Assembly (NCBI GenBank): GCA_963700695.1
Contig: CAVOYO010000004.1
Coordinates: 263,959 to 327,958, forward strand
From: an uncultured Acidobacteriota bacterium
GTDB lineage: Bacteria > Acidobacteriota > Vicinamibacteria > Fen-336
Direction of reading: 5' to 3'
DNA: 64,000 nt
Shown here: piece by piece, positions 2,848 to 39,085 of the stretch
How positions within the stretch are numbered: the first letter of the stretch is position 1
Layout of the letters: every line of letters starts with the position of its first letter
Position numbers and translations under genes: made by a program
The notes under the pieces: model-generated
What the model was told of the DNA's origin: nothing
The model's database searches: none
Seen by the model: only the letters and a program-made list of their open reading frames with translations

Positions 2848-3805
2848 GCCGGGATCGCGCGCGCGCGCGTTCGCAGACGCGCCTCCTCCTCCTCGACGTG
2901 GTGGATGAAGACGTCCTCGAGCGACGGCACGATGCGCTCGATGGAGGCAGGGCGGGTTGCCCTGGCGCTCCAGAGCGTCGGTGATCAGCCGCCGGCCCTC
3001 GTCGGCGTCCCTCACGACCACGTGGATGCGCGTGCCGAAGACCGACGTCTCGAGGGCCCACTCCTGCTCGCCGAGCAGCTCGAGGGCCTCGCTGAGCCGG
3101 GGTGCGCTCACCTCCAGCACCGCGCGGCCCGCGAACACCTCCTTGAGCTCGCCCACCGTGCCCTGGGCCGCCAGGCGTCCCGCGTGGATCAGGGCCAGGC
3201 GGTGGCAGTACTCGGCCTCGTCGAGGTAGTGGGTGGTCACGAAGACGGTCACGCCCCGGCCGGACATCTCGTCGATCAGGGCCCAGAAGCGCCGCCGCGA
3301 GATGGGGTCGACGCCGCTGGTGGGCTCGTCGAGGAACACCACCTTCGGCTCGTGGAGGACCGCGCAGGCCAGGGCCAGCCGCTGCTTCCAGCCGCCCGGG
3401 AGCTCGCCGGTCAGCCGGTGCTCCTTGCCCCGGAGGTCGGCCATGTCGATGGCCCACTCCTCCCGCTCCCGGGCGCGGGCGCCGCGCAGGCCGTAGACGC
3501 CGCCGAAGAAGCGCAGGTTCTGCCGCACGCTGAGGTCCTCGTAGAGGCTGAAGCGCTGGCTCATGTAGCCGATGCGCCGCTTCACGCCCTCCGGGTCGCG
3601 GGCCACGTCGATGCCGAGCACCCGCCCGTGCCCTCGGTGGGGGCGAGCAGGCCGCAGAGCATGCGGATGGCGGTGGACTTGCCGGCGCCGTTGGCGCCCA
3701 GGAAGCCGAAGATCTCCCCCGCCTCGACGCTCATGGTGAGGTGGTCGACGGCGGTGAAGGAGCCGAAGCGCTTGGTGAGCTGGTCGAGCTCGATGGCGGG
3801 CTCAT
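2844..3805 (-). CDS. ABC transporter ATP-binding protein (single NBD), frame-disrupted
   Basis: Motifs present: Walker [10 protein letters not shown], signature [16 protein letters not shown], Walker [14 protein letters not shown]-loop VTTHYLDEA, and C-terminal [21 protein letters not shown]. These are spread over three frames, with shifts near 3790, 3625 and 2945. Confidence 0.75.
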
Positions 3806-5137: not shown

Positions 5138-6117
5138 CGCGTCACCTCACTGGGGCCCGGCGTGTCGGCCGCCGCGGCTCGAATGCGCCGGATGAAGACG
5201 TCCTCGAGAGAGGGCAGGCCGGCGCGGGCGGACTCGACCTCGACGCCGACTCGCCGCCAGGTGCTCGGCCAGCCGGCGCGCGGCGTCCGCGGCGCCTCCC
5301 GGGCTCGACGCCGGGCAGGTTCACGTGCAGGCGGTCGCCGAAGACCTCCACGTCGGCCACCTCGGGGTGCCCGCGCAGTCCCTCCGCCGCCTGCTTGCGC
5401 GGCCGGGCGACGACCTCCACGAACGAGCCCTCGATCTGCGAGCGGAGGTTGCCGGGGGCGTCGAGGGTGAGCAGTCTGCCCCTTGTCCATGAGCGCCACC
5501 CGGCCGCACCGCTCCGCCTCGTCGAGGTAGGGGGTGGTGAGGAGGATGGTGAGGCCCTCCCGCTGGAGCCGGGCGAGGAGCTTCCAGAAGTCGCGGCGGG
5601 AGACGGGGTCGACCCCGGTGGTCGGCTCGTCGAGGACCAGCAGCTCCGGGGTGTGGACGAGGGTGCAGACCAGCGCCAGCTTCTGCTTCATGCCGCCGGA
5701 CAGGCGCGCGGCGAGCCGGCCGCGGAAGGGCGTCATGCGCACCATGTCGAGCAGCTCGTCGCGGCGCGGCTTCCAGTCCCTCACGTCGTGGATCTCGGCG
5801 AAGAAGGCGATGTTCTCGTCGACGGTGAGGTCGCCGTAGAGGGAGAAGCGTCTGCGAGAGATAGCCCACCCGGTCCGACAGCCGGCGCCGCTGCCGCGTG
5901 GGACTCAGTCCGCACGTCTCCACGCTCCCGGAGTCGGGAGCGAGGATCCCGAGGACCATGCGCAGGGTGGTGGTCTTGCCGGCGCCGTCGGGACCGATCA
6001 GGCCGAACATCTCCCCGCGGCGCACCTCCAGGGAGAGCCGGTCCACGGCCACGAGATCGCCGAAGCGACGGCTCAGCTCATCGGAGCCGCACGAGCACGG
6101 GCGCGCCCTCGCTCACT
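5134..6117 (-). CDS. ABC transporter ATP-binding protein (single NBD), frame-disrupted
   Basis: Motifs present: Walker A GPDGAGKTT, signature LSGGMKQKLALVCTL, Walker B LLVLDEPTTGVD, TTPYLDEAE, and C-terminal SLEDVFIRRI. There are at least four frame changes (about 6090, 5845, 5475 and 5250-5290). The GTG start overlaps the HlyD stop (GTGA) and the stop overlaps the TolC ATG (ATGA). Confidence 0.7.
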
Positions 6118-7085
6118 GGACCGGGCCCGCGGGCTGCAGCCGGGCCTCGGCCGGCATGCCGGGCTTGAAGAGGCCGTCGTCGTTGTCGAGGGCGATCTTG
6201 ATCCGGAAGACGAGCTTGACGCGCTCGTCGCGGGTCTGGACGTTCTTCGGGGTGAACTCTGCGCGCGAGGCGATGAAGGAGACCCGCCCCGTCCGCGTCT
6301 GCCCGTCGTCGGTGACCACCTCGGCGTCCTGGCCCAGGCGGATCCGTCCGAGGTCCGGCTCCGGGATGTAGGCGTTGAGCCAGGCGTTCGCGAGGTCCGT
6401 CACGACGACGATCCCGCTTCCCGGGGCCATCAGCTCGCCCTGCTCCGCGAGCTTCTGGGTCACGACGCCGTCCACCGGGCTGCGGATCACGGCGTCCTCG
6501 AGCTGCTGCTCGAGCTGGGCGATGCCGGGCCTCGGCGGCCTGGCGCCGGGCGCGGGCGGCGTCCTTCTCCTCGTCGCGGAAGCCGGCCTCCATCCGGCGG
6601 ACGCGCTCACGGGCGGCCTCGACCGAGGCCGCGGCCACGTCGCGCCGGGTGCGGGCGTCGTCGCGCGACTTGGTCGTGCCCGAGCCGACGGACAGCAGGC
6701 CCTCCATGCGCTCGAGGTCGCGGCTGGCGCCGGCGAGGTCCGCCTCGGCCCTCGCCAGCTGGGCCCTCGCCTCCAGGATGTCCTCCTCGCGCGTCCCGGC
6801 GAGGCGCAGGCGCAGCTCGGCCCGGGCCAGGGCCCGCTCGGCCTTCGCCGTCTGCAGGGCGAGGCGCGTGTCGACGGTGTCGATGCGGGCGATCTCCTGA
6901 CCGGCCTCGACGGTGGAGCCCTCGTCGACGGCGAGGTGTTCGAGGGTGCCGCCCACCTTGGTCGAGAGCAGGACCTCGGTGGCCTCGACGTGGCCGGAGG
7001 CGAGGATGCGGCCGTCCTCGCCGTCTCCACCGCAGGCCGCGGCGAGAAGGACGGTGCCCAGGACGACTCCAGCTGAGCGCTTCAT
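6113..7085 (-). CDS. HlyD-family periplasmic adaptor (membrane fusion) lipoprotein, one frame break
   Basis: It begins MKRSAGVVLGTVLLAAACGG (lipobox), followed by the lipoyl-like hairpin HVEATEVLLSTKVGGTLEHLAVDEGSTVEAGQEIARID and a long coiled coil. After a shift near 6540 it reads IRSPVDGVVTQKL...GRVSFIASRAEFTPKNVQTRDERVKLVFRIKI...LQPAGPVQ. An aaggag SD lies 8 nt upstream of the ATG. Confidence 0.8.
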
Positions 7086-8903: not shown

Positions 8904-8921
8904 GGCGGGTATAATCCCGCC
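8904..8921 (+). promoter_or_regulatory. Perfect TATAAT hexamer flanked by the inverted repeat GGCGGG/CCCGCC, 27 nt upstream of the sensor phosphatase ATG
   Basis: The sequence ggcgggTATAATcccgcc is read directly. No good -35 is present (cgatgc/ccgatg), so promoter status is uncertain. Confidence 0.35.
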
Positions 8922-8941
8922 GCGTTTCGAGCGCCTCCGCG

Positions 8942-10901
8942 ATGGACAGACCGAGCCACGACCCCGACCGAGGATTCCGCAGCCTCACCACCCGCCTCAT
9001 CGTCTGGACCCTGCTCGCGGTCGGGGCGGTGTACGTGGTCACCGTCGTCGTGTCCAACACGCTGGCCCGCCGAATGGCCCTGGCCGCGGCGGAGCGCGAA
9101 GCCATCAACGAGGCCGACGGGGCCGTGGGCCAGGTCCAGGACGTTCTGCACGCGGTGGAGGAGCGGACCCTGGTCCTCGCCGCGGTCGTGGACGACGCTG
9201 AATCCTCCGGAGGCCGCGCTCGACCGTCTGCTGGGCGACTTCGTCCTGGGTCATCCGGAGGTGTTCGGCGCGGCCATCGCCTTCGAGCCCGGTGAGCGGC
9301 TCCCGGGCGACGGGCGCCTCGTCCGCTACCACCACCGACTCCGCGACCGCCCCCACGAGCTCGGCACCGCCGATCTGGGCGCCGGCGGGATCCGCTACTG
9401 GGAGAAGGAGTGGTACGCCAGGCCCCTCCGCAGCGGAGAGCCCGGCTGGTCCGAACCCTACTGGGACGAGGGCGGCGGCGAGGTGAACATGGTCACCTGG
9501 TCGGTGCCTCTGCGGCGGCCGGACGGGACCGTTCGCGGGGTCGTCACCGCCGACCTGCGCCTGCGGTGGCTCGACGCCCTGGTGCGCCGGGTGGAGCTCG
9601 GGCGCAGCGGCTTCGGCCTCATCGTGTCCCGGCAGCGCCACATCATCGCCGCCTCGCATCGGCCAGCCGGGGCCATCGAGGCGCCCCAGCGGGTCCTCGA
9701 TCGATGCCCCCCGAGGAGCGGGTCCGCCTCCAGCCCATCGTCGAGCGGATGGTGGCGGGCGAGCCGGGCTTCGAGGCGATCGAGATCGACGGACGCCGCT
9801 ACCGGCTCACCTTCCGGCCCATCGGGCCACGCCGGCTGGTCGATGGCGCTGGCTCTACCCGGAGGACGAGCTGTTCGAGGAGGTGGGCTGGCTGCGGACG
9901 ATCCAGTCCGCGCTCGACCTCGGCGGTCTCGTCCTCCTCGCCCTGGTCGTCGTCGTCCTCTCGCGGCGGCTCACCCGGCCCCTCGGGGCCCTCGCCGCGA
10001 GCGCCGACGACATGGCCACCGGCAACCTCGATGCCACGCTGCCGCCCGTCGAGACGCGCGACGAGATCGGACGCCTCACGCGTGCGTTCCACCACATGCG
10101 CGACTCGCTCAAGACCTACATCCGGGACCTCAAGGAGACGACCGCGGCCAAGGAGCGGCTGGAGAGCGAGCTCAAGGTCGCCCGGCGCATCCAGGCCGAC
10201 ATGCTGCCGAAGCCCACGGCGGGCGGGCCCGACGAGGGCTACGAGCTGGCGGCGACGCTGGTCCCGGCGCGGGCGGTCGGGGGCGATCTCTTCGACCACT
10301 TCCGGGACGGGTGAGCGGGTCTTCTTCCTGGTCGGCGACGTGTCGGGCAAGGGGGTGCCGGCGGCCCTCTTCATGGCCCGCACGAAGACGCTCTTCGAGG
10401 CCCTGGCCGCACGGGAGGCCGACCCGGCAGCGATCCTGGCCGCGGCCAACCACAACCTCTGCGCGGAGAACGACGCCGGCATGTTCGTGACCGCGGTCTG
10501 CGGGGTCCTCGACGCGACGAGCGGCGAGCTCACCTTCGCCCTCGCCGGGCACGATCCGCCCGTCTTCGTCCCGGCCGAGGGCGACCCGGAGCCCCTGCAG
10601 GTCGAGGGCGGCCGGGTGCTCGGCCTGATCGAGGGCTCGGACTACCCGGTGAACCGGCTCCGGCTGGGCCACCGGGACGCCGTCGTCATGTTCACCGATG
10701 GCGTCTCCGAGGCCCAGAACGTGGACGGCGGCTTCTTCGAGCTCGACCGGATCGTCGAGACCCTGAAGCGACACCGCCACGAGGACGCCGTCGGCGGTGA
10801 CCGAGGCCTCCTGCGAGGCGGTGCGCGACTTCGCCGGAGAGGCGCCCCAGTCCGACGACATCACCCTGATGACCCTGAGGTACCTGTCGCCACCCGCCTG
10901 A
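8942..10901 (+). CDS. Membrane sensor phosphatase: TM - Cache-like - TM - HAMP - PP2C/SpoIIE (RsbU-like); multiply frame-disrupted
   Basis: Domain pieces: TM1 LIVWTLLAVGAVYVVTVVVS; Cache-like IRYWEKEWYARPLRSGEPGWSEPYWDEGGGEVNMVTWSVPL; TM2 LDLGGLVLLALVVVVLS; HAMP RRLTRPLGALAASADDMATGNLD...DEIGRLTRAFHHMRDSL; PP2C ARRIQADMLP...AVGGDLFD...FFLVGDVSGKGVPAALFMA...VMFTDGVSEA...SDDITLMTLRY. Five frame changes are needed (about 9205, 9690, 9860, 10312 and 10795). Confidence 0.8.
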
Positions 10902-11022
10902 GCCCGGAGATCACCGGCGCCCGATGACAAGACCCGCCGGGGTCGCCGGGGTGCCCGTGGTTGAACGGCGCCGCGCGAACAGGTAGTCTCGGCCGCTCTC
11001 CGGAGGCTGCTCGAGCTTTCGA

Positions 11023-12172
11023 ATGTCCACGACCGCGACGAGCCGCAGGCCCCGCTACGACGTGGAGCACGACCCCGCGTCCGGGACCCTCCGCGTCCGC
11101 CTGAGCGGCACCTGGACGATGAAGACGGGTGCCGGCCCGGGCGAGGAGCTGCTGCCGCACGTCCAGTCCCTGCCCGAGGGCTCCCGTGTCGTGATCGAGG
11201 ACGCCGGCATCGCGCAGTGGGACAGCCTCCTCGTCGCCGCCGTGCGCGACCACGACCCTGATCGCCCGGGCCGCGGCGTGAGCGTGGACTGTCCGGCCTG
11301 CCCGACGGGGCGCGGAAGCTGGTCGACCTCGCGGCGGCGGTGCCGCCGCGGCTGAGGCCGATCGGCCCCCCGAGGACGACGCCCTCACCGCGCGGGTGGG
11401 GCGGATCGCCCTCGGGGCCTGGGACACGGCCTCCGACGCCACCGAGTTCCTGGGCGAGGTCGTCCAGGCCTTCGGCACCTTCCTGCGCGGCCGAGCCCGG
11501 TTCCGCCGCGTCGACCTGATGCACGCCCTGGAGAGCGCCGGGGTGGGGGCCCTCGGCATCGTGGCCCTCATCAACTTCCTCGTGGGGACGGTGCTGGCCT
11601 TCGTGGGGGCGGTCCAGCTCGAGCAGTTCGGGGCGGCGATCTACGTGGCCAACCTGGTGGGCATCGCGGTGGCCCGGGTGCTCGGGGCCCTCATGACGGG
11701 GATCGTGATGTCGGGGAGGACGGGAGCCTCCTTCGCCGCGATCCTGGGCACGATGAACGTGAACGAGGAGACCGACGCCCTGAAGACGATGGGCCTGAAG
11801 CCGGTCGAGTTCCTCGTCCTGCCGCGGGTCATCGCCACCACCCTGATGCTGCCCGCCCTCACGGCCTACGGGATCCTCATGGGCCTGCTGGGGGGGATGT
11901 TCGTCGGGGTGGCGCTCCTCGACATCGGGGCCATGGAGTACCTCACGCAGACGCAGGGCTCGCTGGACCTGAGGCAGGTCGTGATCGGTCTCTCGATGGG
12001 CCTGGCCTTCGGGATGGTCGTGGCCCTCACCGGCTGCTACTACGGTCTGCGCTGCGGGCGCAGCTCCGCCGCGGTGGGCCAGGCGACCACGAAGGCGGTG
12101 GTCTCGTCGATCGTGCTCGTGGTGGTGGTGACCGCGGTCTTCACCGTCGTCCTGTACCTCCTGGGGTTGTGA
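11023..12172 (+). CDS. mlaE: MlaE-family ABC permease with an N-terminal STAS-like domain; frame-disrupted in the linker
   Basis: The N-terminus reads TLRVRLSGTWTMKTG...SRVVIEDAGIAQWDSLLVAAV (STAS-like, DS motif). The C-terminal 258 aa are a typical MlaE: FLGEVVQAFGTFLRGRARFRRVDLMHALESAGVGALGIVALINFLVG...MNVNEETDALKTMGL. Shifts between about 11250 and 11400 join the two parts. Confidence 0.75.
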
Positions 12173-14633: not shown

Positions 14634-15858
14634 TCTCGAAGCCTGGGCGACCGCGAGAAGTTCCACCGGCTCTTCATCCTGTTTCTCGTCGTGGTCGTCT
14701 CCGCGGCCTTCCTCTACATGATCCGTGGCTTCATCGTCACGGTGCTGATGGCCGCGATCTTCTCGGGGCTGGCCCATCCCCTGTATCGGCGTCTCCTGCC
14801 GAGGGTCAGGGGAAGCCGGGCGACGGCGTCGGTGCTGACCCTCCTGATCGTTCTCCTCCTCGTCGTCGTTCCCCTCGTCGCCTTCCTGGGCATCGTGGCC
14901 ACCGAGGCGGTCTCCATCAGCCAGTCGGTCACCCCCTGGGTGCGGGAGCATCTGCGGGAGCCCGGAGGGCTCAGCCGGCTCCTCGAGCGCGTCCCGTACC
15001 TCGCCCAGCTCCAGGAGCAGTTCCAGGCCTACAGCGCCCAGATCATCGAGAAGCTCGGGGAGCTGGCGGGCCGGGTGAGCTCGTTCCTGGTGAACAGCCT
15101 GTCCGCGGCCACGAAGGGCACCGTGGGCTTCCTCTTCCAGCTCTTCGTCATGATCTACGCCATGTTCTTCTTCCTGGTCGGAGGCCGCGCGGCGCTGGAC
15201 AAGGCCATGGTCTACGTCCCGCTCCCGGAGAGCGACAAGGAGCTGCTCCTCGACAAGTTCGTCTCGGTGGCCCGGGCGACCTTCAAGGGGACCTTCGTCG
15301 TGGGCCTGGTCCAGGGGGGGCTGGCCGGCCTCGCCTTCGCCGTCGCCGGTATCCAGGGGGCGACCTTCTGGGGCACGGTCATGGTCGTGCTCTCCATCAT
15401 CCCCGGGATCGGGACCGCCCTCGTCTGGGTCCCCGCCGTCATCTATCTCTTCGCCGTCGGCCAGACCGTCTCCGCCGTCGGCCTCGCCGTGTGGTGCGCG
15501 CTCGTCGTCGGGACAGTGGACAACTTCCTCCGGCCGAAGCTCGTGGGCGGCCGACACGAAGATGCCCGACCTCCTGATCCTCCTGAGCACGTTCGGGGGG
15601 CTGTCGATGTTCGGCGCGGTCGGCCTCGTCCTCGGTCCCATCATCGCCGCGCTGTTCATCGCGGTGTGGCAGATCTACGGAGAGGCCTTCGGCGAGCTGC
15701 TGGGCACGGAAGGCGCCCGCCGACGACGAACCACGGCCACCGATCCCGACCGGCTGGAAGGACTCCGAGGTCCCCTGAGGCACGGCGACCCGCCGCGGGC
15801 CGCCTTGAGAGGGTCGTCGGCGTGTGGGAGTATGGAGGTCTCGGAGGTTCCTCGATGA
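14630..15858 (+). CDS. AI-2E family (PerM/YhhT-like) membrane transporter; frame-disrupted, 3' end uncertain (15777 or 15858)
   Basis: REKFHRLFILFLVVVVSAAFLYMIRGFIVTVLMAAIFSGLAHPLYRRL...GIQGATFWGTVMVVLSIIPGIGTALVWVPAVIYLF...VDNFLRPKLVG, then (shift near 15555) MPDLLILLSTFGGLSMFGAVGLVLGPIIAALFIAVWQIY. Confidence 0.75.
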
Positions 15859-16745
15859 GTCTGCGGCGCCAGCTGGCCCTGCGGTCAGCCACCTGGTCTC
15901 TCGTCGTGTCCGCCTGCTCCGGCCTGCGCCTCTCGCCGGTGACGGCCGAGCCCACGAGCACAGTGGATCCCCGGCAAGTTCATCTGGCACGACCTCATCA
16001 CCCACGACGTCGAAGCGGTGAAGAGCTTCTACGGCGGCATCTTCGGCTGGACCTTCGAGGCCCTGCCCGGGACCGATCGCTACACGGTGATCCGCCACAA
16101 CGGGGAGATGATCGGCGGCATCGCCTTCAGCGACCGCAAGGTCGACGGGAGAGCCGGTCTCCCAGTGGGTGAGCATGATGTCCGTCCCCGACGTCGACCT
16201 CGCGGCCTCCCGTCTCCGGCAGGCCGGTGGCCGGGTCTACGCCGGACCCCGCGACATCGACGACCGGGGTCGCCTGGCCATCGTGGGCGATCCCCAGGGG
16301 GCCGTCTTCGGCCTCGTCCGCACCACCGGCGGGGATCCCCCCGACCGGGAGGCCGGGACTCGGTGACTGGCTGTGGAACGAGCTGTGGTGCGACGACCAG
16401 GAGTCGGCGAGCCAGGTCTACGCCAGCCTCGTCGGTTTCGAGCTGGACACCCAGGAAACGGTGGCGGGAAGACCCTACACGGTCTTCAAGAGAGACGGCA
16501 CGCCCCGGGCCGGGCTGCTCGTCGACCCCTTCCCCGAGGTGACGCCCTACTGGCTCTCGTACGTTCGGGTGGAGGACCCGGCGGCAGTGGTGGCGAAGGT
16601 GGAGGGGCTCGGCGGCCAGGTGCTTCTCAAGCCCGACCCGAAGCACCGAAACGGCACGGTGGCCATCATTGCCGACCCGACGGGGGCGGAGGTGGCGATC
16701 CAGAAGTGGCCGATCGACGACACGGGAGCCGGAGGGGGCGACTGA
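15855..16745 (+). CDS. Secreted two-module VOC (glyoxalase/bleomycin-resistance fold) protein; frame-disrupted
   Basis: Pieces in three frames: MSLRRQLALRSATWSLVVSACSG; FIWHDLITHDVEAVKSFYGGIFGWTFEALPGTDRYTVIRHNGEMIGGI; WVSMMSVPDVDLAASRLRQAGGRVYAGPRDIDDRGRLAIVGDPQGAVFGL; WLWNELWCDDQESASQVYASLVGFEL...GTVAIIADPTGAEVAIQKW. Confidence 0.65.
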
Positions 16746-16958: not shown

Positions 16959-16994
16959 CGTCGTCCCGGGGCCGGTCCGACCCGGAATCACAGA

Positions 16995-19900
16995 ATGCAC
17001 GGCCCCGAGCCCGTGACCGCGGGGCGCCCTGAGCCGGCGCCATCCACGGGCCCGCGAGTCGGGTGGCGCTGGCTCCGCCGCTGCCTCTGGGCCTTCGGGG
17101 CCCTGGCGGTTCTCGTCGCCCTTCTGCACACCCCCCCCGCGAAGCGGCTCCTCACCTCGGCCCTGGTCTCCCTGGCCAGCCGCGCCCTGAGCGCGGAGGT
17201 GAGAGTCGACCGCCTCGACTACCGGCTCTGGGCCGGCGAGGTGCGCCTGGACGGGGTGCACGTCCAGCGTCCTCGCCTGGAGATCGCCTGCGCGCGGGCC
17301 GAGGTCGAGGTGGGTCTCGACGCCACCGTCCGGGCCCGGATCGAAGCCCCGCGGGTCGTCGTCACCCAGGGGCCGCCGGGCGACCAACCACCACCATCCG
17401 CGCCCTCGCGACCGTGGAGGATTCTCGAGTGGGTCGACGAGGTGGACCTGCGCGAGGGGGCGCTGGAGCTGCGCAGCCGCGAGGACGTCCCGTGGCTGCG
17501 CCTCGAAGGCCTCGAGGCGCGCGTCGAGAGCCTGTCCGGTCACCCCCGCGGCTCGGCGCGCGTGGCGAGAGCCGGCGTCGGCTGGCCCGGGGCGGGGATC
17601 CGGGTCGAGCCGGTGCGGGCCGAGGCGGACTTCGAGCTGGGGCCGGACTCTGGCGCCGTGCGGCTCCTCCGGGGAGAGGTGTTCTCGGGCGAGACGACGC
17701 TCCGTGGCCGGGGACAGCTCGAGCAGATCGGGCCGATCCTGGCCCGCGCCGAGGGCGGGGGACGAGTCGACGCACGGCTGCTCCAGCGGCTGGTTCCGGA
17801 CCTGGAGATCGAGGGCCAGGTCGAGGCCCGAGCGACCTTCGAGCAGGACGTCGCGGGTGCCCGGGGCTCGCTGGAGGTGGAGGCCGCGTCCGTCCGGGTC
17901 TTCGAGGTCGGCCCCTGGGATGGCTCGATCCGCGGGCGGCTCGAGGAGCGCCGGCTGCACGTCGAGTCGCTGGACCTCGCCGGCTACGACGGCCGAGTGG
18001 AGGGGACCGGGACCGTCTTCCTGGGCGACGGCCCCAGCTCCGTGGACGTCCGCGCAAGCGACCTCGACGTCGAAGCGCTGGTGGGAGCCTTCGTCGCCGC
18101 CCCGCCCCCCCTCGCCTCCCGGGTGGACGCCCAGCTGGAGCTCAGCATCCGGGACTGGGACGTGGACACCCTCCGGGGCCAGGGCCGCCTGTCGCTCCGG
18201 CCGGGGGAGGGGGAGGGCTGGCCCCTGGCCGGGCCGGTGACGGTGGGCCTCGCCGATCGCCGGGTCTCGTTCGCCGCCGACGGCCTCCGTGTCCGCTCGG
18301 CGCAGGTGACGACCGAAGGCTCCTTCTCCTTCTCGAAGGAGCTCGACGCGCGCTACGGGCTCCGTCTTCCCGGCCTCGAGGCGTCGCCCGAGCTCCTGGC
18401 CGACGCGGGGGTCGAGCTGCCCGAGCTCACGCTGGACGGCAGCGTGGAGGTCGAAGGGGAGATCGAGGGACGGTTGCCCGAGTGGCAGGGGACGGCCCGG
18501 ATCGCCAGCGGTGGAGTGAGCGTGGAGGACGTCGACGTCGGTCTCGCCGGAGTGCTGGCGATGTCGAGCGCCGGCGTCGAGATCGAGTCGTTCGAGGCGA
18601 GGGGCGAGGACGGCTCGCTGAGGGTCGCCGGTTTCATTCCACTCGACGACGCGGGTTCGTGGAGCGTCACCAGCGAGGTCACCGAGCTGCGGCTCACCGA
18701 CGCCCTGGGACGGCACGGCGTGCCGGTCCCCGCGACCGCCCGCGGGCGCGTGCGGGTGGAAGGGCCGAAGGACGACCCGACCGCCGAGTTCGAGATCGAG
18801 GCCCGTGCGGAAACGGCGGATTCCGAGTCCGCTGCTGAAGCGACGGACTCGGAATCTTCCGTCTCCGTCGATGGATCCGAAAACACGTTCCTTGTTGAAG
18901 ACGAAGCTCCCCGGACGCGCCACCGGCCCGGGAGCCGGCCACGCTGCAGCTGGCGGGCACCGCCAGCCGCCGCGGGCTGGTCGTCGACAAGCTGACCGCG
19001 GTGATCGGCGGGGGAGCGGTTGAGGCCTCGGGTGCCTGGCGTGCGCGACGGCGGATCCCTCGACGGGCACGTGCGGATCGCCGACGTGCAGCTGGCCCGG
19101 CTGCCATGGCTTCCCGGGCCGGCCGCGCTCGACGGCCTCGTCTCGACCCTCTCCGGTGAAGCCGAGGTGTCGGGACGGGTCGACGACCCCGAGGGCCGGC
19201 TCGAGCTGCGTCTTGCCGGGACGCGGTACGGTGACGAGGCCTTCCCCGACCTCGACCTCGACGCCGCCCTGGCCGGGGCCGAGGCCCGGCTGGCCGGCCG
19301 CCTCGGCGGGGAGCCGGTGCTCTCCGGCCGGATCGACTTCGACGAGCAGTGGCCGCTCCATCTGGACGTCGAGCTGGCCGCCCTGCCGATGACCCGGGCG
19401 CTTCGGACCCTGCCCGGCGCATACCGTGAGAGGCGGTCGCTCGCCGTGACCGGGCAGGCGTCGCTCGAGCTTCCCCTGCGCGAGCCGGGGCGGCTGAGAT
19501 ACGAGGCCCGTGTCGACGCCCTCGAAATGGATCTCGGAGGTGGGGGGGCATCGGCGGGTCCGTTCACCGTGAGCGGGGGTCGAGAGACCGTCGCCATCGA
19601 CGGCCTCGATCTCCGCCGGGGGGAGACCCGACTGCGCGTCGACGGGGAGCTCGGCCTCGCGGCCGACGCCTCCCGGCCCCTGGCGCTCCGCGGCGAGATC
19701 TCTCTCGCGGACGTGGCCCTCGTCTTCGCCGACGTCGACCTGGAGGGCGACGCGGTCGTCAACGTCACCCTCGGAGGGAGGCTGGATCGGCTCGACATCT
19801 CCGGGGAGGCTCGTCTCGAGGGAGGCCGCGGTCGCGTCGGCCCGCTCGATATCGAGAACCTGGGCCTGGAGGCCGTCGCTCGCGAGGGCGTGCTCACCAT

Positions 19901-22900
19901 CCAGGAGGCCCGGGCCGGGGTGGCCGGGGGCGCGATCTCGGCCCGTGGGCAGCTCCCCGTCGGACCCCTCGCCGAAGGCGCGCACACCCTCGAGTTCGAG
20001 CTCCGTGGGGTGGATCCCGGGGCGCTCCTTTCCGAAGGGCCCGGCGATCCGGCCCTGGTGGCCCCCCTGGACCTGTCGGGCCGGATCCGCGCCACCGACC
20101 TGGCCCTCGACACGATCGAGGCCGAGGGCGAGATCACGGCCTGGTCGGTCGGCGCGGGGAAGGAGACGCTGGTCCTGGAGAAGCCCGCCACGTGGCGCTA
20201 CGGGGAGGGTCGGCTGACCCTCGACGGCCTGCGCCTTCGCGGCGGCCAGGGTCACCTCGGGGTGGATGGGGTGTGGACGCCGGACGGGGATCTCCGCCTT
20301 CACCTGAGCGGCGAGACCGACCTGGCCCTTCTCAACCCGATGCTCGGGGGAGAGCTTCGGCTGTCCGGACCGGGGCGGATGGACCTCACCGCTCGCGGGC
20401 ACGCGGGCGCCCTCACCCTCGAGGGCGGGGCGAGCCTCGAAAACGTCCGCGCGGTGCTGCGCGAGCCCCCGGTCGTGGCGTCCGGTTTGACGGGCTCGAT
20501 CGAGGCGAGGGGGGACTCCCTCGTGCTCGAGGCCCGGGGGGCGGTCGGCGACGGCCGCCTGCGGTTGGCGGGGACGGTGGTTCCGAAGCGCGACGGGCCC
20601 GAGGTCGACATCACCCTCGACGCGGAGCGCGTCCCCCTCGTGTACCCGGAGGGGCTGCGCAGCCGGTCCTCGGGGCAGGTCCGGCTGAGGGGTCGGCAGC
20701 GCCGCTACCGCCTCGAGGGTGACGTCGTCGTCCACCGGGCCCTGTACGAACGGGAGACCGACCTCGCGAGCCAGTCGCTCGACGGCGTGGGGGCGGACCT
20801 GCGGGCGCTCGATGCTCGGGGGTCGATCCTGGAGCGCGTCCAGCTCGACGTGCGTGTCCGGCTGGCCGAGGGCCTGCGCATCCAGAACCGGCAGGCGGAG
20901 CTCGTCGCCGACGGCGCGGTGACCCTCGGCGGCGACCTGCTCACCCCCGAGGTGCACGGGTCGGTGTCCCTCCGCGAAGGGGGCACGGTGAAGCTCTCGA
21001 GGGCCACCGTGCGCCTGTCGCAGGGTCGGGTGAACCTGTCCGGCTTCCCGTCGCAGCCGCTGGAGATCGACGTCTCGGGTCGGACCCAGGTCACCGGGGT
21101 CCAGATCGACGTCGGGCTCTCCGGTCCCCTCGACGACCTCCGGACGAGCCTCTCCTCGCCGAACCGCTCCGACCTCACCCAGGGAGACCTCGCCACGCTC
21201 ATCCTGACGGGCCGCACCGCCCAGGCGGCCGCCGACCAGAGCGGGGCAATCGTCGCCGAGGAGGTGGCGGCGGCCCTGGGCTCCGCCCTCAACGAGCGCC
21301 TCGGGGGGGCGATCTTCATCGACGTCTCGAGGGACGAGTCCCTGATCGTGCAGGACACGGACCCCACCCAGCGCTTCAACATCGGGATCCCGATCGGCGA
21401 GCGACTCTACGTCATCCACTCCCAGGCGCTCGATCGCAACGGGGTCCGGTGGATCCTCGACTTCCGCCCGCCGGGACGGTTCCGGGTCCGGCTGATCAGC
21501 GACGAGGTGGCATCGAACGCGGTCGAGGTGAGCCACGGCTTCGACTTCGATCTGTGGTCCCGGGGGCGACGCAAGGAGCCGGAGCCTCCCCTTCGGCCAC
21601 GGGTGCGGGAGATACGCTTCGAAGGGATTCCCGCTGAAGACGCGGGGGAGCTTCGGCGGGGAGCGAAGCTCGAGGTCGGCGACGAGTACGATTTCTTCGA
21701 GGGCGACCAGGCCTCACGGCGCCTGCAGAAGCGCCTGGTCGACCAGGGCTACGGGGCGGCCCTCGTCGAGGCGGCGGAGGAGGGGGCGGGGGACGGCCGG
21801 GTCGACGTCGTCTTCAAGGTCGAGCGCGGTCCCCGCATCGAGGTGAGCTGGGCCGGGGACGACCCGGGCCGCAAGCTGCGCGAGCGTTTCGCCGGCTCCT
21901 GGGACGCCTACCTCTCGATCGACGAGACCGCGGCCCGGCGGGCCCGCGACCTCCGGAGTGAGCTGCGCGCGCGGCGCTACTACCAGGCCACGGTCTCGGC
22001 GGACGTCGAGCTCTCGGAGGACCTGGCGCGTGTCCGCTTCGAGGTGCGCCGCGGGCCGCGCGGTCGGGGCGTGGACCTGGAGTTCGAAGGGAACTCCACG
22101 CTGTCCGCCGAGTCCCTGGCCGCGGTCCTCCCGCCCCGCGACCAGGCCGACTTCTTCGCCCTCATCGAGCCCCAGGGGCTGACCCGCCTCGACACCGCCC
22201 TGCGCAGCGCCGGGGCCCGGGCCGGGTTTCTCTCCCTCGAGGCGGGGCGGCCCCGCGAGGTCTTCGATCCGGAGACCGGAAGCTTCCGCGTCACCATTCC
22301 GATCGAGGAAGGGGAGCGCGCCGCCCTCGTCCGACTCGATCTTCCCGAGGGGGTCCGGAGCCTCGAGGGGGCCCCGCCCCCGGACCTGAAGCTGCGGGTG
22401 GGCGGGCCCTTTCGGATCGAGGCCTACGTGGACGACCGGGCCACCCTGGCCCGCTGGTTTCGCGAGCAGGGTTTTCCCGACGCACGCCTGGCCGGGATCC
22501 TCGACCCGGCGCCCGGGGGCCTCGCGGTGCGCTTCGAGGTGGACACCGGTCCCCGTCCCCGGGTCGGCGCGATCCGTCAGGCCGGGATCGGGAGGACGCG
22601 CTCGGGCGTGGTCGATCGCGCCGTCGTCCTGGAGCCGGGCGATCTCATCCGACCCGAGGACCTGGCCCTCACCCGCGACCACCTCTCGGAGACGCGGGTC
22701 TTCCGCTCCGTCGACGTCCGGGCGGAGCCGACGGAGGATGCGGGGGTCCGCGACCTCGTCGTGGACCTCGCGGAGCGACCGGACCTGAGCGTCGAGTTCA
22801 AGGTCCGGTACGAGACGGGCCGCAGCCGCGAGACGGCCGAGGAATCGAGCACCGAGGAGTCTCGGGGGTTCCAGTTTGGCGTCGGCATCGAGGCCGCCAA

Positions 22901-23816
22901 TCCGTTCGGGCGCGCCCACCGCTACAGCGTCTACGGCCTGGCCGGCAAGAGACGCCAGCTCTTCGGGGCCACGTTCGAGTCGCAGACGTTCTTCGGCCGG
23001 CGGTGGCGGACCCAGGTGTTCCTGTTCGACGACAACGAGCAGGACTACGAGACGACGGGCATCACGCGGCGGGTCCGGGGGCTGGCCTTCCAGCAGACGA
23101 AGCGGTGGAGGAGCGGTCTCACCGGGCGGCGGTGGCACGATCGGCTGCGCATGCAGTGGGGGTACGGCTTCCGGCGCGTCGACTACACGGATCCCGAGAC
23201 CGGAGGCATCCTCGCGGGGGACCGGGCTGGCGTCGCGAACTCGCTCATCGGCGACAGCCGGGACAGCGTGACCGACCCCCACCGCGGCCTCTTCTGGACG
23301 GCGACGGTCGAGCCGGCCCTCGAGGTCCTGGGGTCGGAGAAGAACTACGTGCGGCTCTACGGCCAGGTCTTCGCGTACGTGCCCCTCGGCACGAAGGTGG
23401 TCTGGGCCCAGGGTCTGCGCGTGGGCACGGTGCCGGGCGAGGACCCGCTCCTCCTGCTCGACCGCCGCTTCAAGGCCGGGGGCGCCACCACCATCCGGGG
23501 ATTCGCGGAGAACGCGCTCGGTCCGCAGTATCGGGGCTTCCCGATCGGCGGGCAGGCGCTCTTCGTCTTCAACCAGGAGCTCCGGTTCCCGCTGCCGCTC
23601 TGGAACCGGTTGTACGGCGGCGTCTTCCTCGACGCCGGGAACGTCTGGGAGCTGGCCAGCGAGCTGAATCTCCGGGACCTGCGAGCCAACGTCGGGGCGG
23701 GCGTTCGGGTCATGTTCCCGTTCGGCCCGATTCGCCTGGACTGGGCCTGGGTCCTCGATCCGAAGGACGGCGAGCCGCAGAACCGCTGGCAGTTCGCCCT
23801 CGGCCACGCGTTTTAG
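16995..23816 (+). CDS. tamB: Giant envelope protein: TamB-like (N-terminal anchor, long beta-rich AsmA-like region, DUF490) fused in frame to POTRA repeats and an Omp85/TamA-type beta-barrel; one short out-of-frame patch at about 18900-19045
   Basis: ORFs 16995..18995 and 19020..23816 are in the same frame. The evidence, N- to C-terminus:
- Anchor WRWLRRCLWAFGALAVLVALL.
- TamB/DUF490 signature LSGFPSQPLEIDVSGRTQVTGVQIDVGLSGPLDDLRTSLSSPNRSDLTQGDLATLILTGRT...RFNIGIPIGERLYVIHSQ...RFRVRLISDE..VEVSHGFDF.
- A linker with no stop and no signal peptide.
- POTRA-like RVREIRFEGIPAED..., VDVVFKVERGPRIEV, VRFEVRRGPRGRGVDLEFEGN, VRFEVDTGPRPRVGAIRQAG.
- Omp85 barrel motifs GGATTIRGFAENALGP, GGVFLDAGNVWE and terminal FALGHAF. 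Confidence 0.8.
18819..18856. repeat. Hairpin element copy A (13-bp stem GATTCCGAGTCCG / CGGACTCGGAATC, 12-nt loop) inside the TamB-like coding region
   Basis: Read directly from the sequence. It sits in a segment of about 100 nt at 56% GC (hand count over 18811-18908). The same 12-bp stem recurs at 38807-38843. Confidence 0.8.
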
Positions 23817-27948: not shown

Positions 27949-28035
27949 GGGGCGGGTCTGCCAAGGCTTCCCCGCGCTTGACCGGGGGTGACGGGGCGAG
28001 ACAGGATCAGCGCGCACGAAGCGAGGAGGAACGCC

Positions 28036-28948
28036 ATGGAACGACGTGAGCTGCTGAGGACCACCCTGGCCGCGGGGGCCGCGTTGAGCCTCGGGGCGGT
28101 GCCCACCCGCCGGGCCCTCGGTGCGCCCGTGCGCACCTTCAAGCTCAAGTACGCCCCGCACTTCGGAATGTTCAAGCACCACGCGGGCGAGGACTTCGTC
28201 GACCAGCTCGAGTTCGCGGCCGACCAGGGCTTCACCGCGTTCGAAGACAACGGCATGCCCGACCGGCCGGTCGAGCTCCAGGAGAGAATCGCGGCCGCGA
28301 TGACCCGTCTCGGGATCGAGATGGGCGTCTTCGTGGCGGAGGCGGACTTCGAGAACGTCACCTTCGCCGCGAACACGCCCGAGGTGCGCGAGCTGGTGAC
28401 CAGGAAGGCGAAGGCGGCGGTCGAGGTCGCCAAGCGCGTCAACGCGAAGTGGACGACGGTGGTGCCGGGGCGCTACGACGAGGGCCTCGAGTGGGACTAC
28501 CAGACGGCCAACGTGATCGACAACCTCAAGCGCTTCGCCGAGATCATCGAGCCCGCACGGCCTGGTGATGGTGCTGGAGCCGCTCAACCCCTGGCGGAAT
28601 CACCCGGGGCTGTTCCTCACGAAGATCCCGCAGGCCTTCATGATCTGCCAGGCGGTGGGCAGCCCGTCGTGCAAGATCCTCGACGACCTGTACCACCAGC
28701 AGATCACCGAGGGCAACCTGATCCCCAACATCGACCGGAGCTGGGACGAGATCGCCTACTTCCAGGTGGGCGACAATCCCGGCCGCAAGGAGCCGACCAC
28801 CGGCGAGATCAACTACCGGAACGTCTTCAAGCACATCCACGGCAAGGGCTTCACCGGCATCGTCGGCATGGAGCACGGCAACTCGAAGCCGGGCAAAGCG
28901 GGGGAGCGGGCGGTCATCGACGCGTACGTCTCCTGCGACTCGTTCTAG
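28036..28948 (+). CDS. Tat-exported xylose-isomerase-like TIM-barrel protein (hydroxypyruvate isomerase family); one frame break near 28555
   Basis: Twin-arginine signal MERRELLRTTLAAGAALSLGA, then KLKYAPHFGMFKHHAG...GFTAFEDNGM. After the shift it reads VMVLEPLNPWRNHPGLFLT...CKILDDLYHQQITEGNL...IAYFQVGDNPGRKEPTTGEINY...GIVGMEHG. Confidence 0.75.
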
Positions 28949-37053: not shown

Positions 37054-38805
37054 GTGGGGCGACGCAGCGGCTACGACAGACACCCCGTGACGCCGGTCGG
37101 GCCCGGTGTCGAATGCCACGTCGGCTGGACGGCCATCCTCGAGCGGCTGCAGGGGCTGCGGTCCCGGGCACGGTGCGTGCTCGCCGTCGAGTGTTACCCC
37201 GGCGTGCGGGTGGACGAGGTCAAGCAGGCGTTCATCACAGGGCTGGCCCCCATCCTGGTGGTGGACGTCCGCCAGGCCTACCGGCACGCGACGGACGTCG
37301 AGCGGATGTGCGCTCCCTACCTCGGGGACGACCCGGTCTTCGGCCGTATGAACGGCCTCTCGCTCGCCGACTTCTTCGATCCCGGCCGTGAGGCAACCCT
37401 CCGCTCGCGCATCGAGAAGACGAGGGAGGGCCTCGCGCTCGTCGTGGGGGCCGGGGCCAGCCTGCTTGCGGACCCGGACACGCTGGTCTACGCGGACATG
37501 GCCCGCTGGGAGATCCAGCAGCGCCAGCGGCGGGGGGAGTCGACGGCGGTCGCGGTCGACGACCACACCGAGGACCCGGAGCTGAAGTACAGGCGGGGGT
37601 TCTTCGTGGACTGGAGGGCGGCGGACCGACTCAAACGGGAGGCGCTGCCCCGGCTCGACTTCCTCCTCGACACCAACGACCCCGAGCGCCCGAAGATGAT
37701 CGCCGGCGACGATTTCCGCCGGGGGCTCGCGGAGTCGGTCACACGCCCGTTCCGAGTGGTGCCCTTCTTCGATCCCGGCCCGTGGGGCGGACAGTGGATG
37801 AAGAAGGTCTGCGATCTTCCCCGTGAGGTGCCCAACTACGCCCGCTGCTTCGACTGCGTGCCCGAGGAGAACAGCCTGCTCCTGGGCTTCGGGGGCGAGC
37901 GCGTCGAGGTCCCGGCCCTCGACCTCGTCTTCCTCCACCCGCGGGAGCTCCTGGGAGAGGCGGTTCACGCGCGCTTCGGGGCCGAGTTCCCGATCCGCTT
38001 CGATTTCCTGGACGCGATGGACGGCGGCAACCTGTCGCTGCAGGTGCACCCACTGACCGAGTACATCCAGGACCGCTTCGGGATGCACTACACCCAGGAC
38101 GAGAGCTACTACGTCCTCGACGCGGAGGACGGGGCGAACGTGTACCTGGGCCTGAAGGAGGGGGTCGACCGCGAGGCCGTGGTGCGCGACCTCAGGCGCG
38201 CCCAGGAGGGGGGCTTCCGCTTCCCGGACGAGCTCTACGTGAGCCGCTGGCCGGCGAGGAAGCACGACCACTTCCTGATCCCGGGGGGGACCGTGCACTG
38301 CTCGGGAAAGGGGAGCATGGTGCTGGAGATCGGCGCCACCCCCTACATCTTCACCTTCAAGCTCTGGGACTGGGACCGGCTCGGGCTCGACGGGAAGCCG
38401 CGGTCCGTCCAGATCGACCACGGAGTCGCGAGCATCCAGTGGGACCGGACGGCCTCCTGGGTCGAGCGCGAGCTCGTGAACCGCATCGAGCCCCTGGCCG
38501 CGGGTCCGGGCTGGCGCGCCGAGCGCACCGGACTCCACGAGCGGGAGTTCATCGAGACGCGTCGGCACTGGTTCACCGGGACGGCCCCGCACGACACCGC
38601 GGGCGGGGTGAACGTGCTCAACCTCGTGCAGGGCGAGGAGGCGGTGGTCGAGAGCCCGTCGGGAGCCTTCGAGCCCTTCGTGGTCCACTATGCGGAGACC
38701 GTCATCGTCCCCGCCGGCGTGGGCGCCTACACGATCCGGCCGCACGGCCCGGGGGCGGGCTCGGAGTGCGCGACGATCAAGGCCTCGGTGAGGACGCGGC
38801 CTTGA
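37054..38805 (+). CDS. Long-form class I mannose-6-phosphate isomerase-like cupin protein, intact (start uncertain)
   Basis: Part of ORF 36736..38805. The GTG at 37054 follows gggaggg. The sequence reads ...FFDPGPWGGQWMKKVCDL...DCVPEENSLLLGFGG...FPIRFDFLDAMDGGNLSLQVHPLTEYIQDRFGMHYTQDESYYVLDAEDGANVYLGLK...HFLIPGGTVHCSGKGSMVLEIGATPY. The QVHP / E-YY / H motifs are of PMI type. Confidence 0.7.
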   Translation: MGRRSGYDRHPVTPVGPGVECHVGWTAILERLQGLRSRARCVLAVECYPGVRVDEVKQAFITGLAPILVVDVRQAYRHATDVERMCAPYLGDDPVFGRMNGLSLADFFDPGREATLRSRIEKTREGLALVVGAGASLLADPDTLVYADMARWEIQQRQRRGESTAVAVDDHTEDPELKYRRGFFVDWRAADRLKREALPRLDFLLDTNDPERPKMIAGDDFRRGLAESVTRPFRVVPFFDPGPWGGQWMKKVCDLPREVPNYARCFDCVPEENSLLLGFGGERVEVPALDLVFLHPRELLGEAVHARFGAEFPIRFDFLDAMDGGNLSLQVHPLTEYIQDRFGMHYTQDESYYVLDAEDGANVYLGLKEGVDREAVVRDLRRAQEGGFRFPDELYVSRWPARKHDHFLIPGGTVHCSGKGSMVLEIGATPYIFTFKLWDWDRLGLDGKPRSVQIDHGVASIQWDRTASWVERELVNRIEPLAAGPGWRAERTGLHEREFIETRRHWFTGTAPHDTAGGVNVLNLVQGEEAVVESPSGAFEPFVVHYAETVIVPAGVGAYTIRPHGPGAGSECATIKASVRTRP

Positions 38806-38853
38806 CATTCCGAGTCCGCAGCCGTGGACGTCGGACTCGGAATCCGTTGTCAA
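38802..38853. repeat. Hairpin element copy B: outer arms TTGACA/TGTCAA plus 12-bp stem ATTCCGAGTCCG / CGGACTCGGAAT (13-nt loop), overlapping the PMI-like stop codon
   Basis: Read directly from the sequence. The inner stem (38807-38818 / 38832-38843) is identical to the stem at 18820-18855, and the flanks downstream of both copies also align loosely (AACACG...TGTT(T)GA(A/G)GA(C/T)GA(A)GCTCC). It could double as a terminator. Confidence 0.8.
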
Positions 38854-39043
38854 CACGCGCCTCGCTGTTTGAGGATGAGCTCCTCTCAAGGACGACGACG
38901 CTGCGTATGACCACCGGAAGGAAGATCGAGATGATCGTGAACGGCTCGACTCGTCCAGGACACCGCTCGTCCGACGGCGGGTCCACGGTGAGCCGGCGCA
39001 AGGTCGCGATCGCCGATGCACGAAGCTGAGCGCCCCGGGCACG

Positions 39044-39072
39044 TTGACCCGGCCCGGGTCCTCGGTGAGAAT
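39044..39072 (+). promoter_or_regulatory. Sigma70-like promoter candidate (TTGACC-N17-GAGAAT) 13 nt upstream of the HTH gene ATG
   Basis: TTGACC at 39044-39049, an exact 17-nt spacer, and GAGAAT at 39067-39072. The ATG at 39086 has no SD, which fits a very short or leaderless mRNA. Confidence 0.45.
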
Positions 39073-39085
39073 CCTCGCGACGGAT

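Follow-up and report, generated by a model that had tools for sequence, protein, structure and literature searches.

Opening question and proposed answer

The window analysed here, a whole stretch of DNA of 64,000 nt, carries a long TamB-like coding region that is interrupted by a TGA codon within a patch that reads sensibly only in a shifted frame. A low-GC segment able to fold into a strong hairpin lies immediately upstream of this patch, which raises the question of whether the break and the hairpin have a common origin. A preliminary description of this DNA had offered two answers: either a small element inserted and left a scar that the gene tolerates as a linker, or the hairpin provoked local assembly errors. 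Our analysis suggests, with a probability of about 0.8, that these are two separate things lying side by side, namely consensus errors that would account for the patch and its TGA, and a hairpin that would be a genuine copy of a family of palindromic repeats.

A single gene for a TamB-POTRA-Omp85 fusion

The interrupted region comprises two ORFs that share frame 0, separated by the TGA at 18993-18995, as originally described. They belong to one gene:

16995..23816, + strand: TamB-POTRA-Omp85 fusion gene, one gene, cut in the assembly into ORFs 16995..18995 and 19020..23816

Pfam domains matched on this gene were TamB/DUF490 (PF04357; 95.4 bits against a gathering cut-off of 22.4, at residues 509-765 of the second ORF), POTRA (PF07244; 59.7 bits) and Omp85 (PF01103; 162.5 bits). 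The POTRA and Omp85 partner domains are in the same polypeptide, with no separate TamA. The ortholog in genome G003 is a single ORF of 2283 aa that aligns end to end with positions 16959-23813 at 72.5% identity. Orthologs in the same genus are likewise one ORF of about 2283 aa, and full-length homologues of 2200-2300 aa were found in many Acidobacteriota MAGs in the protein database. The intact product in the source organism is most likely one TamB-POTRA-Omp85 protein of about 2285 aa, like that of its relatives.

The fusion shares with the TAM (TamA-TamB) of Proteobacteria the TamB DUF490 domain, the POTRA repeats, the Omp85 barrel and a hydrophobic N-terminal anchor, the last being called by eye from the sequence. 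In the described systems TamB and its Omp85 partner are two proteins, whereas this gene and its counterparts in many Acidobacteriota MAGs encode a single polypeptide of 2200-2300 aa with TamB ahead of Omp85. There is no mention of a TamB-Omp85 fusion in an evolutionary survey of the TAM. A natural single-chain fusion may be of interest for how the TAM bridges two membranes.

The gene is broken in the assembly by two compensating indels

The features of the break are as follows:

18905..19040, + strand: out-of-frame patch, conserved protein in the frame with start mod 3 = 2 and nonsense in frame 0
18993..18995, + strand: frame-0 TGA closing the first ORF, in the nonsense frame
19002-19004, + strand: second frame-0 TGA, also in the nonsense frame
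18905..18916, + strand: one-base shortfall relative to the orthologs, placed by DNA alignment near 18910 (C-run 18909-18912)
19038..19044, + strand: one-base surplus relative to all orthologs, placed by DNA alignment at 19040

Translation of frame 0 gave Arg/Pro-rich nonsense from about 18905 to 19040, while the shifted frame of the patch read as conserved protein (SSPDAPPAREPATLQLAGTASRRGLVVDKLTAVIGGGAVEASGAW), both in agreement with the preliminary description. The GC3 of the shifted frame is 0.95 at 18920-18979 and 0.85 at 18980-19039, as expected of the frame that is truly coding. The single frame of every ortholog aligns with the patch, in which about 29 of 40 aligned residues are identical to G003 (counted by eye), near the gene-wide value of 72.5%. 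That two one-base indels of opposite sign flank the patch was borne out by the ortholog alignment. The related contig P0005 reads EASGAWVRDGG across the 19038..19044 junction in one frame, and over the 6.8 kb aligned with G003 (78.2% nucleotide identity) the only non-triplet indels are the two near 18910 and at 19040. Linker and patch are in one frame in all full-length relatives (G003, G005, P0004, P0006 and P0007) and also, locally, in P0005 and G001. In G001, which is likewise a few-contig assembly, the same gene is broken, but at another place.

The co-occurrence of a stable hairpin with an in-frame TGA brings programmed recoding to mind, either as a frameshift near 18910 and back near 19040 or as readthrough of the TGA, perhaps aided by the hairpin. 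We find this hardly conceivable, since every ortholog is single-frame with no stop and no shift site, frame 0 makes no sense between the indels, and breaks of this type recur across the genome; moreover, the hairpin lies about 140 nt 5' of the TGA, whereas a bacterial SECIS or stimulatory structure would be expected on the other side. As specific candidates, selenocysteine insertion was rejected because the TGA is in a non-conserved frame with the hairpin 5' of it, and a programmed ribosomal frameshift because the two-frame organisation is not conserved.

Frameshifts occur throughout the assembly

The assembly consists of 31 contigs with a marker completeness of only 75.5%. Over the first 26 kb of the window, 19 junctions were counted at which a single G003 ORF changes frame; this is an upper bound, the query set having included a few antisense shadow ORFs. 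One 661-aa G003 ORF, for example, lies in six pieces at 8915-10898. Elsewhere in this genome (G000), single-copy rpoB, at C2:379,656-383,929, is spread over three frames and rpoC over two, which calls for caution with any frame-based finding in this assembly. The frame model counted 6.2 same-strand frame hops per 10 kb in this genome against 3.0-3.75 in a comparison set of 97 kb of G003, G005 and G001, and 144 compensated patches genome-wide against none in that set. Among close frame-change pairs, 80 return to the starting frame and 106 go to the third frame, so compensation occurs as often as chance would have it. No clean nonsense substitutions were seen in bona fide genes over about 8,250 aligned residues; every stop within an HSP coincided with a frameshift junction, belonged to an antisense shadow ORF or preceded a start.

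This pattern is shared with the indel errors of long-read or poorly polished MAGs, in which one-base gains and losses cut conserved genes, essential single-copy genes among them, high contiguity goes with low marker completeness, nonsense substitutions do not accompany the frameshifts, and close pairs compensate about as often as not. Unlike typical long-read MAG errors, the junctions here were not enriched in homopolymers (7 of 19, against a background of 36%), and the density of errors varies from place to place along the contig. By eye, CCGG and CCWGG motifs around the junctions looked no different from background. The protein database held no independent near-identical assembly, the next best match being 63% identical.

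The part of the contig with the fusion gene seems sparser in frame changes than the first 17 kb of the window, and in an otherwise clean gene of 6.8 kb two independent indels 135 nt apart are somewhat unlikely (roughly a few percent, by our estimate). The indels could be considered real mutations, leaving this strain with a recent pseudogene or with two products, one an N-terminal TamB fragment of 666 aa and the other a C-terminal part of 1598 aa that restarts at the TTG at 19020. Besides the closeness of the two indels, the sole ones in 6.8 kb, the public gene call for this contig (P0003) that begins a 1594-aa protein just past the break speaks for this explanation. However, the same assembly breaks rpoB and rpoC, which is impossible in a living cell, as well as many conserved genes of the window; the patch shows no decay, with the high GC3 values given above (0.95 and 0.85) and an ortholog identity like that of the rest of the gene; and frameshifts without nonsense substitutions suit sequencing error better than decay. 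Real mutations are thus unlikely, and we infer that both indels are consensus errors in a MAG assembly that is prone to them and was probably made from long reads; one base would have been lost near 18910 and one gained at 19040. In annotation, the split and the TGA should not be taken for a pseudogene, a recoding event or two genes.

In a variant of the error explanation, the adjoining palindrome would itself be the specific cause, its stability and unusual composition having impaired base-calling or polishing, for instance. Points in favour are the short distances, 40 and 170 nt, from this strong extended palindrome to the indels downstream of it, the otherwise clean gene, and the patchy error density of the assembly. 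Neither indel is within the hairpin, however, and there are hundreds to thousands of frame changes elsewhere with no element nearby, while the 24 copies of the element in this genome afford no statistical power for detecting enrichment of errors near them. We consider a causal role of the hairpin improbable; with frameshifts throughout the assembly, including rpoB and rpoC, it is not needed to explain the break.

The hairpin belongs to a palindromic family seen in one genus

The low-GC hairpin itself is genuine DNA. Its parts, and a second copy of the same element in the window, are the following:

18808..18904, + strand: low-GC, acidic, Ser-rich variable linker (TADSESAAEATDSESSVSVDGSENTFLVEDE), GC 0.59, GC3 0.60
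18813..18870, + strand: in-frame REP-like palindromic element copy, matched by covariance model R1
18821-18854: core of the element
18819-18831 and 18844-18856: stem
18832-18843: loop
18855-18870, + strand: CCGT-rich tail
38800..38858, + strand: second copy in the window, intergenic (R1 61.4 bits, E = 3.4e-14)

The low GC that had drawn attention to this segment was reproduced (0.59 at 18800-18899 against 0.73 for the gene), and GC3 falls to 0.60 in the linker from 0.91 across the gene. The perfect 13-bp stem was also recovered, pairing GATTCCGAGTCCG (18819-18831) with CGGACTCGGAATC (18844-18856) around a 12-nt loop. The RNA fold of 18790-18910 has an energy of -53 kcal/mol (z = -3.2), matched by one of 200 shuffles, and the 5' flank at 18805-18820 in this genome is complementary to the tail of the element.

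Related palindromes have the form (A)TTCCGAG-NN-CG, a loop of 10-14 nt and CG-NN-CTCGGAA(T), often followed by a CCGTTCC-like tail. A search of this genome with the 7-nt arms returned 20 matches against 0.95 expected by chance; 19 of the 20 were 34-36 nt long and nearly all had complementary inner positions, which the search did not require. A looser search gave 24 copies. Copies of the exact pattern numbered 16 in this genome, 20 in G003, 8 in G005, 7 in G001 and 1 in G004, with none in 36 other related genomes (G002 of the genus and 35 of other genera), and a reversed control pattern had no match in any genome searched. The 41 related genomes searched thus yielded the family in a single genus. 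At 6 of the 12 stem pairs there are compensatory changes, a count partly biased by the looser search, which selected for arm complementarity; the family is in this respect a dispersed short palindrome with compensatory stem change, as REP-type elements are.

In this genome 22 of the 23 other copies are wholly non-coding according to the frame model, and the remaining one reaches into the margin of a segment called coding; none of the 19 other copies in G003 has a coding frame across it. The TamB copy alone lies within a frame with coding sequence to either side of it (1 of 24 in this genome, 1 of 20 in G003). About half of the other copies begin a few bases past a stop codon; this adjacency was found in this genome and also for 8 of the 19 non-TamB copies in G003, a fragmented, probably short-read assembly. 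The second copy in the window follows this pattern, the TGA of the best-scoring upstream reading frame starting 5 nt before the hairpin core in a region (38791-39069) called non-coding by the frame model. Rfam gave no match at E <= 1 in 18500-19300 and only chance-level matches (E >= 3) in 38600-39100.

Membership of the TamB copy was evaluated with R1, a covariance model built from 19 other copies with the TamB copies and the other copy in the window left out. It matched the + strand at 46.7 bits (E = 2.9e-10) and the - strand at 45.2 bits. The hairpin might instead be a chance palindrome arising from the repeated peptide DSES...DSES in a low-complexity linker, with no inserted element; the reverse complement of DSES codons reads DSE again one base over, and judging from the sequence an acidic Ser-rich repeat can look palindromic. 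This is very improbable, as the core fits the family consensus in both arms, in spacing and in tail, and scores at the above E-value with a model that had not seen it, as a 7-nt arm pair is expected less than once per genome, and as the family is otherwise non-coding.

The element was inherited within the linker

R1 also matched the TamB copy of two orthologs, at 53 bits in G003 and at 24.4 bits in P0004, where the copy is decayed. Both have a homologous linker, with a GC3 of 0.57 in each. No R1 match was found at the linker of G005, G001 (both of the same genus) or P0005, which have unrelated GC-rich linkers of 24-39 aa; the linkers of orthologs that do not carry the element are of similar length. 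The in-frame element stands in an open ORF of 2283 aa in G003 and, as the decayed copy, in one of 2274 aa in P0004.

These orthologs decide between the parts of the preliminary explanation. The idea of an inserted element is upheld insofar as an element of the family sits in the linker (R1, 46.7 bits). The idea of the patch as its scar is not: in G003/P0006 and P0004, which share the element, the patch is read in a single clean frame, and the indels lie outside the element, downstream by about 40 and 170 nt. Nor is the segment of about 100 nt specific to this lineage, being present at the same site in two others (G003/P0006 and P0004). Orthologs with the segment at normal GC and with no hairpin would have spoken against an element; the ones found instead share with this genome the segment together with its low GC and its hairpin, and the segment was therefore inherited and is no recent insert in this genome. 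A repeated mobile insert of about 100 nt was rejected as well, because a 131-nt segment had no other long copy in the genome, its only matches being its own palindrome and one of 42 nt that pointed to the family.

The element probably arrived by insertion. One copy of this REP-like repeat would have entered a disordered acidic loop of the periplasm-spanning part of TamB, in frame and without a stop, and would now be translated within the linker, having been passed on to several species. No target-site duplication was seen at the TamB element, and the genus gene tree neither supported nor rejected a single clade of element-bearers (p-AU 0.26). All 22 arm positions are identical between this genome and G003, and the arms may have been kept by selection or gene conversion.

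It is doubtful that the embedded hairpin is functional at the nucleic-acid level, beyond being tolerated. If it were, the family could represent a genus-specific post-stop signal that acts, for instance, on transcript 3' ends, mRNA stability or ribosome stalling. The TamB copy, whose arms are identical at 22 of 22 positions across species in a linker that otherwise evolves fast, might then serve within its 6.8-kb mRNA as an internal site of pausing, processing or attenuation.

Comparison with known palindromic repeats

The REP, BIME and REPIN sequences of Proteobacteria are, like this family, short imperfect palindromes of about 35 nt that are dispersed, extragenic and at times in short tandem arrays, with stems held by compensatory change and many copies just past stop codons. 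Many E. coli REPs reportedly lie no more than 15 nt from a stop codon, with lower translation there. Unlike REP and REPIN sequences, the present family has only about 7-24 copies per genome (range 1-24 in the genus) and not hundreds, was found in only one genus of those searched, seems to form direct arrays with a spacing of 50-52 nt rather than inverted pairs, and has one intragenic copy, that in TamB. It also has no RAYT (Y1 transposase) gene flanked by copies: no copy is within 2.5 kb of either Y1_Tnp gene (C11:179116 and C16:22467), and no transposase linked to the family was found.

The TamB copy itself is closer to the Rickettsia palindromic elements (RPEs), which are about 150 bp long, fall into ten families, lie in frame in dozens of genes and each encode a conserved peptide (PMC10969869). 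As with RPEs, a palindromic repeat lies in frame in an ORF, is translated where the protein tolerates extra residues and has been passed on from species to species; the ORF is open and the element kept in the orthologs of G003 and P0004. Unlike RPEs, the TamB element is only about 39-65 nt long and is the only intragenic one of about 20 copies per genome, and there was no recurrent in-frame insertion in unrelated genes with a conserved peptide. We would modestly suggest, by analogy, an Acidobacteriota case of a REP-like palindrome turned coding, in the spirit of the RPEs.

The split TamB-POTRA-Omp85 locus

The preliminary description had placed two reading frames of this locus in the same frame with a TGA between them, and the sequence bears this out.

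16995..18995 (+), first ORF of the fusion gene, frame 0
19020..23816 (+), second ORF of the fusion gene, frame 0

The separating TGA lies at 18993 and another frame-0 TGA at 19002. The first ORF has a weak DUF748 match, under the Pfam cut-off, and the second carries TamB/DUF490, POTRA, and a complete Omp85 barrel (Pfam). The same domain content occupies one ORF in two same-genus genomes (2283 aa in G003, 2293 aa in G005), and the roughly 30 relatives in a large protein database, from Acidobacteriota or Vicinamibacteria MAGs, are mostly 2200-2300 aa with the same domains. Judged by these single-ORF orthologs and relatives, we take the locus 16995-23816 to be one TamB-POTRA-Omp85 fusion gene. 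Its layout comprises TamB (TamB_N and DUF490), three or so POTRA repeats, and the full barrel, all within a single chain of ~2285 aa. A paper on TAM evolution makes no mention of a TamB-Omp85 fusion (PMC4494059). [quoted passage not shown]

From about 18905 to 19040, frame 0 gives the Arg/Pro-rich nonsense described previously, and the frame one base over is indeed protein-like, translating as SSPDAPPAREPATLQLAGTASRRGLVVDKLTAVIGGGAVEASGAW. Third-position GC in the shifted frame is 0.95 and 0.85, which in a genome of 69-73% GC marks the real coding frame.

Frameshifts in the fusion gene and across the assembly

We aligned the linker (the acidic stretch upstream of the patch) and the patch, as protein and as DNA, against G003, G005, and a third same-genus genome, G001, and against the relatives P0004, P0005, P0006, and P0007. 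Linker and patch lie in a single frame in every one of them. Across the whole 6.8-kb fusion gene, the source MAG (G000) and G003 are 78.2% identical and differ by four indels in total, of which exactly two are non-triplet: one base is missing in G000 near 18910, within the C-run 18909-18912, and one base is surplus at 19040. The alignment therefore recovers the two compensating indels (-1 and +1) proposed to bracket the patch. The 45 codons between them match the orthologs just as closely as other parts of the gene do, so the shifts, if real, must be very recent. Locally, a spacing of 135 nt between two indels is a mildly unlikely coincidence, given that the gene is otherwise clean; somewhere in a genome with the error load of G000, such a pair is fully expected.

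That load is considerable. G000 is a 6.2-Mb MAG in 31 contigs, yet its marker-gene completeness is 75.5%. When single G003 ORFs from the syntenic contig were mapped onto the window, 19 frame-change junctions were listed within its first 26 kb, an upper bound because a few query ORFs are antisense shadows. One G003 ORF of 661 aa is matched by six fragments (8915-10898), another of 447 aa by four. Frame changes are much denser in the first 17 kb and look sparser around the fusion gene. In 1-29000, many further genes that match one uninterrupted ORF in G003 are likewise split by frameshifts of one base.

Examples of frameshift-split genes in the window (versus G003 ORFs): 1724-3067, 2847-3800, 3809-5121, 5137-6170, 8915-10898, 10987-12097, 15855-16715, 28021-28837

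A codon-usage Viterbi model was applied to the whole G000 genome, with 97 kb from G003, G005, and G001 as control. Same-strand frame hops numbered 6.2 per 10 kb in G000 versus 3.0-3.75 in the controls, an excess of well over a thousand additional frame changes, and short compensated patches like that of the fusion gene numbered 144 versus 0. Close frame-change pairs in G000 led back to the original frame 80 times and to the third frame 106 times; independent errors of plus or minus one base therefore suffice to account for compensation. Even single-copy essential genes are hit: rpoB (G000 C2:379656-383929) is spread over three frames (open frames of 305, 411, and 966 aa) and rpoC (C2:384021-388029) over two, with its last 144 model positions off-frame.

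Among ~8,250 aligned residues, no clean nonsense substitution was seen in a bona fide gene; stops were confined to frameshift junctions, antisense shadow ORFs, and sequence ahead of start codons, which argues against true gene decay. The fusion gene of G001 (C18:416474-417794), likewise a few-contig assembly, is broken elsewhere, leaving open frames of 911 aa and 1473 aa, and the gene is intact in the fragmented assemblies G003 and G005. Junctions were not enriched in homopolymers, and the protein collection searched contained no near-identical independent assembly.

The split, TGA, patch, and hairpin were thus all seen as first described, but ortholog frames and genome-wide frameshifts speak against patch and TGA as features of the organism. 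On these comparisons, most likely neither exists in the organism; the break fits the classic picture of an assembly artefact. Programmed frameshifting, TGA read-through, and a SECIS element were rejected, as every ortholog keeps one frame and the hairpin is wrongly placed relative to the TGA.

A REP-like palindrome family

The low-GC segment and 13-bp-stem hairpin reported 5' of the patch are both present: GC falls to 59% at 18800-18899, just upstream of the patch, and 18819-18831 pairs perfectly with 18844-18856. The fold of 18790-18910 has -53 kcal/mol (z = -3.2). Used as a query against G000, the low-GC segment returned one further short match with similar arms. The 7-nt arms TTCCGAG...CTCGGAA gave 20 matches versus 0.95 expected, 19 of them spanning 34-36 nt, and the inner four positions, not demanded by the search, are complementary in nearly all (TC/GA, AG/CT, TT/AA, GG/CC, CC/GG). 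A looser search found 24 copies in G000; compensatory change affects 6 of 12 stem pairs, a count partly inflated because this search favoured complementary arms. When oriented, the copies share a 5' flank resembling CTGA(T)CA and a 3' tail resembling TCnnCCGTTCC. Counts of the exact pattern were 16 in G000, 20 in G003, 8 in G005, 7 in G001, and 1 in G004; the other 36 related genomes searched, namely same-genus G002 and 35 from different genera, have none. A reversed control pattern gave zero in all genomes searched, and the family has no Rfam match.

We built a covariance model (R1) on 19 copies, with every TamB copy and the two copies in the window excluded.

Family copies scored with R1
Window 38800-38858, intergenic copy: 61.4 bits
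Window 18813-18870, TamB copy: 46.7 bits, E = 2.9e-10
G003, orthologous TamB copy: 53 bits
P0004 (metagenomic relative), decayed copy at the same TamB site: 24.4 bits

R1 had no match at the TamB linker of G005, G001, or P0005. The ~100-nt segment, put forward for a lineage-specificity check, therefore has its hairpin in G003 and P0004 as well, and this blind match upholds the proposed small element. The TamB-linker hairpin is real, inherited, and exonised, one of the copies that make up a small REP-like family.

At least 12 copies in G000 and 8 of 19 non-TamB copies in G003 start 0-7 nt past the stop codon (TGA, TAG, or TAA) of a well-scoring ORF; only the TamB copy is crossed by a frame coding on both sides. 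A few copies lie in short direct arrays, spaced at 50-52 nt.

Direct arrays of family copies
G000: C12:108927-109065, C12:203043-203127
G003: C39:23805-23940, C379:83805-83892
G001: C2:267078-267163

Certain G000 copies have orthologs in G003 whose loops are almost the same (e.g., G000 C4:217882 and G003 C390:7706). For the copy at 38800-38858, which has extra outer arms TTGACA/TGTCAA, the TGA of the best-scoring upstream reading frame begins 5 nt ahead of the hairpin core.

The family is like REP elements in the size and dispersal of its copies, their compensatory stem changes, and their placement downstream of stop codons, but lacks REP-like copy number and a RAYT link; no copy lies near either of the two Y1-transposase genes of G000. 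In-frame residence within a gene recalls the Rickettsia palindromic elements, although those are larger and far more often intragenic (PMC10969869).

History of the TamB copy

All lineages compared share ...EARAE(P) ahead of the linker. This is followed by (A/C)(G/C)TCA and the hairpin in G003 and P0004, and by unrelated GC-rich sequence in G005, G001, and P0005. Removing AGTCA and the 34-nt core (39 nt, 13 codons) from G003 leaves EP-PAVSVTD, comparable with EP-APSAVPD in G005, which makes an in-frame insertion of ~39 nt into the linker plausible rather than proven. The CCGT-rich "tail" may already have been part of the target. Neither G002 (97% complete) nor G004 (78% complete) had a match to the 445 aa surrounding the linker. 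The gene tree gives no resolution within the genus. An AU test did not reject one clade uniting the element-bearers (p = 0.26); the best gene tree would require loss of the element in G001.

Quasipalindromes are known to template mutations. The 5' flank of the TamB hairpin (18805-18820) differs between G000 and G003 at 8 of 16 positions and is complementary to the 3' tail in G000 only, giving a longer palindrome; the G000 change looks like such a templated mutation. Identity between the two genomes is 22/22 in the arms, 9/12 in the loop, 8/16 and 11/16 in the flanks, and 22/34 in the other linker positions. Among windows of the same shape in the fusion gene, just 2.5% attain 22/22; this suggests that the stem is under constraint or has undergone gene conversion from other copies.
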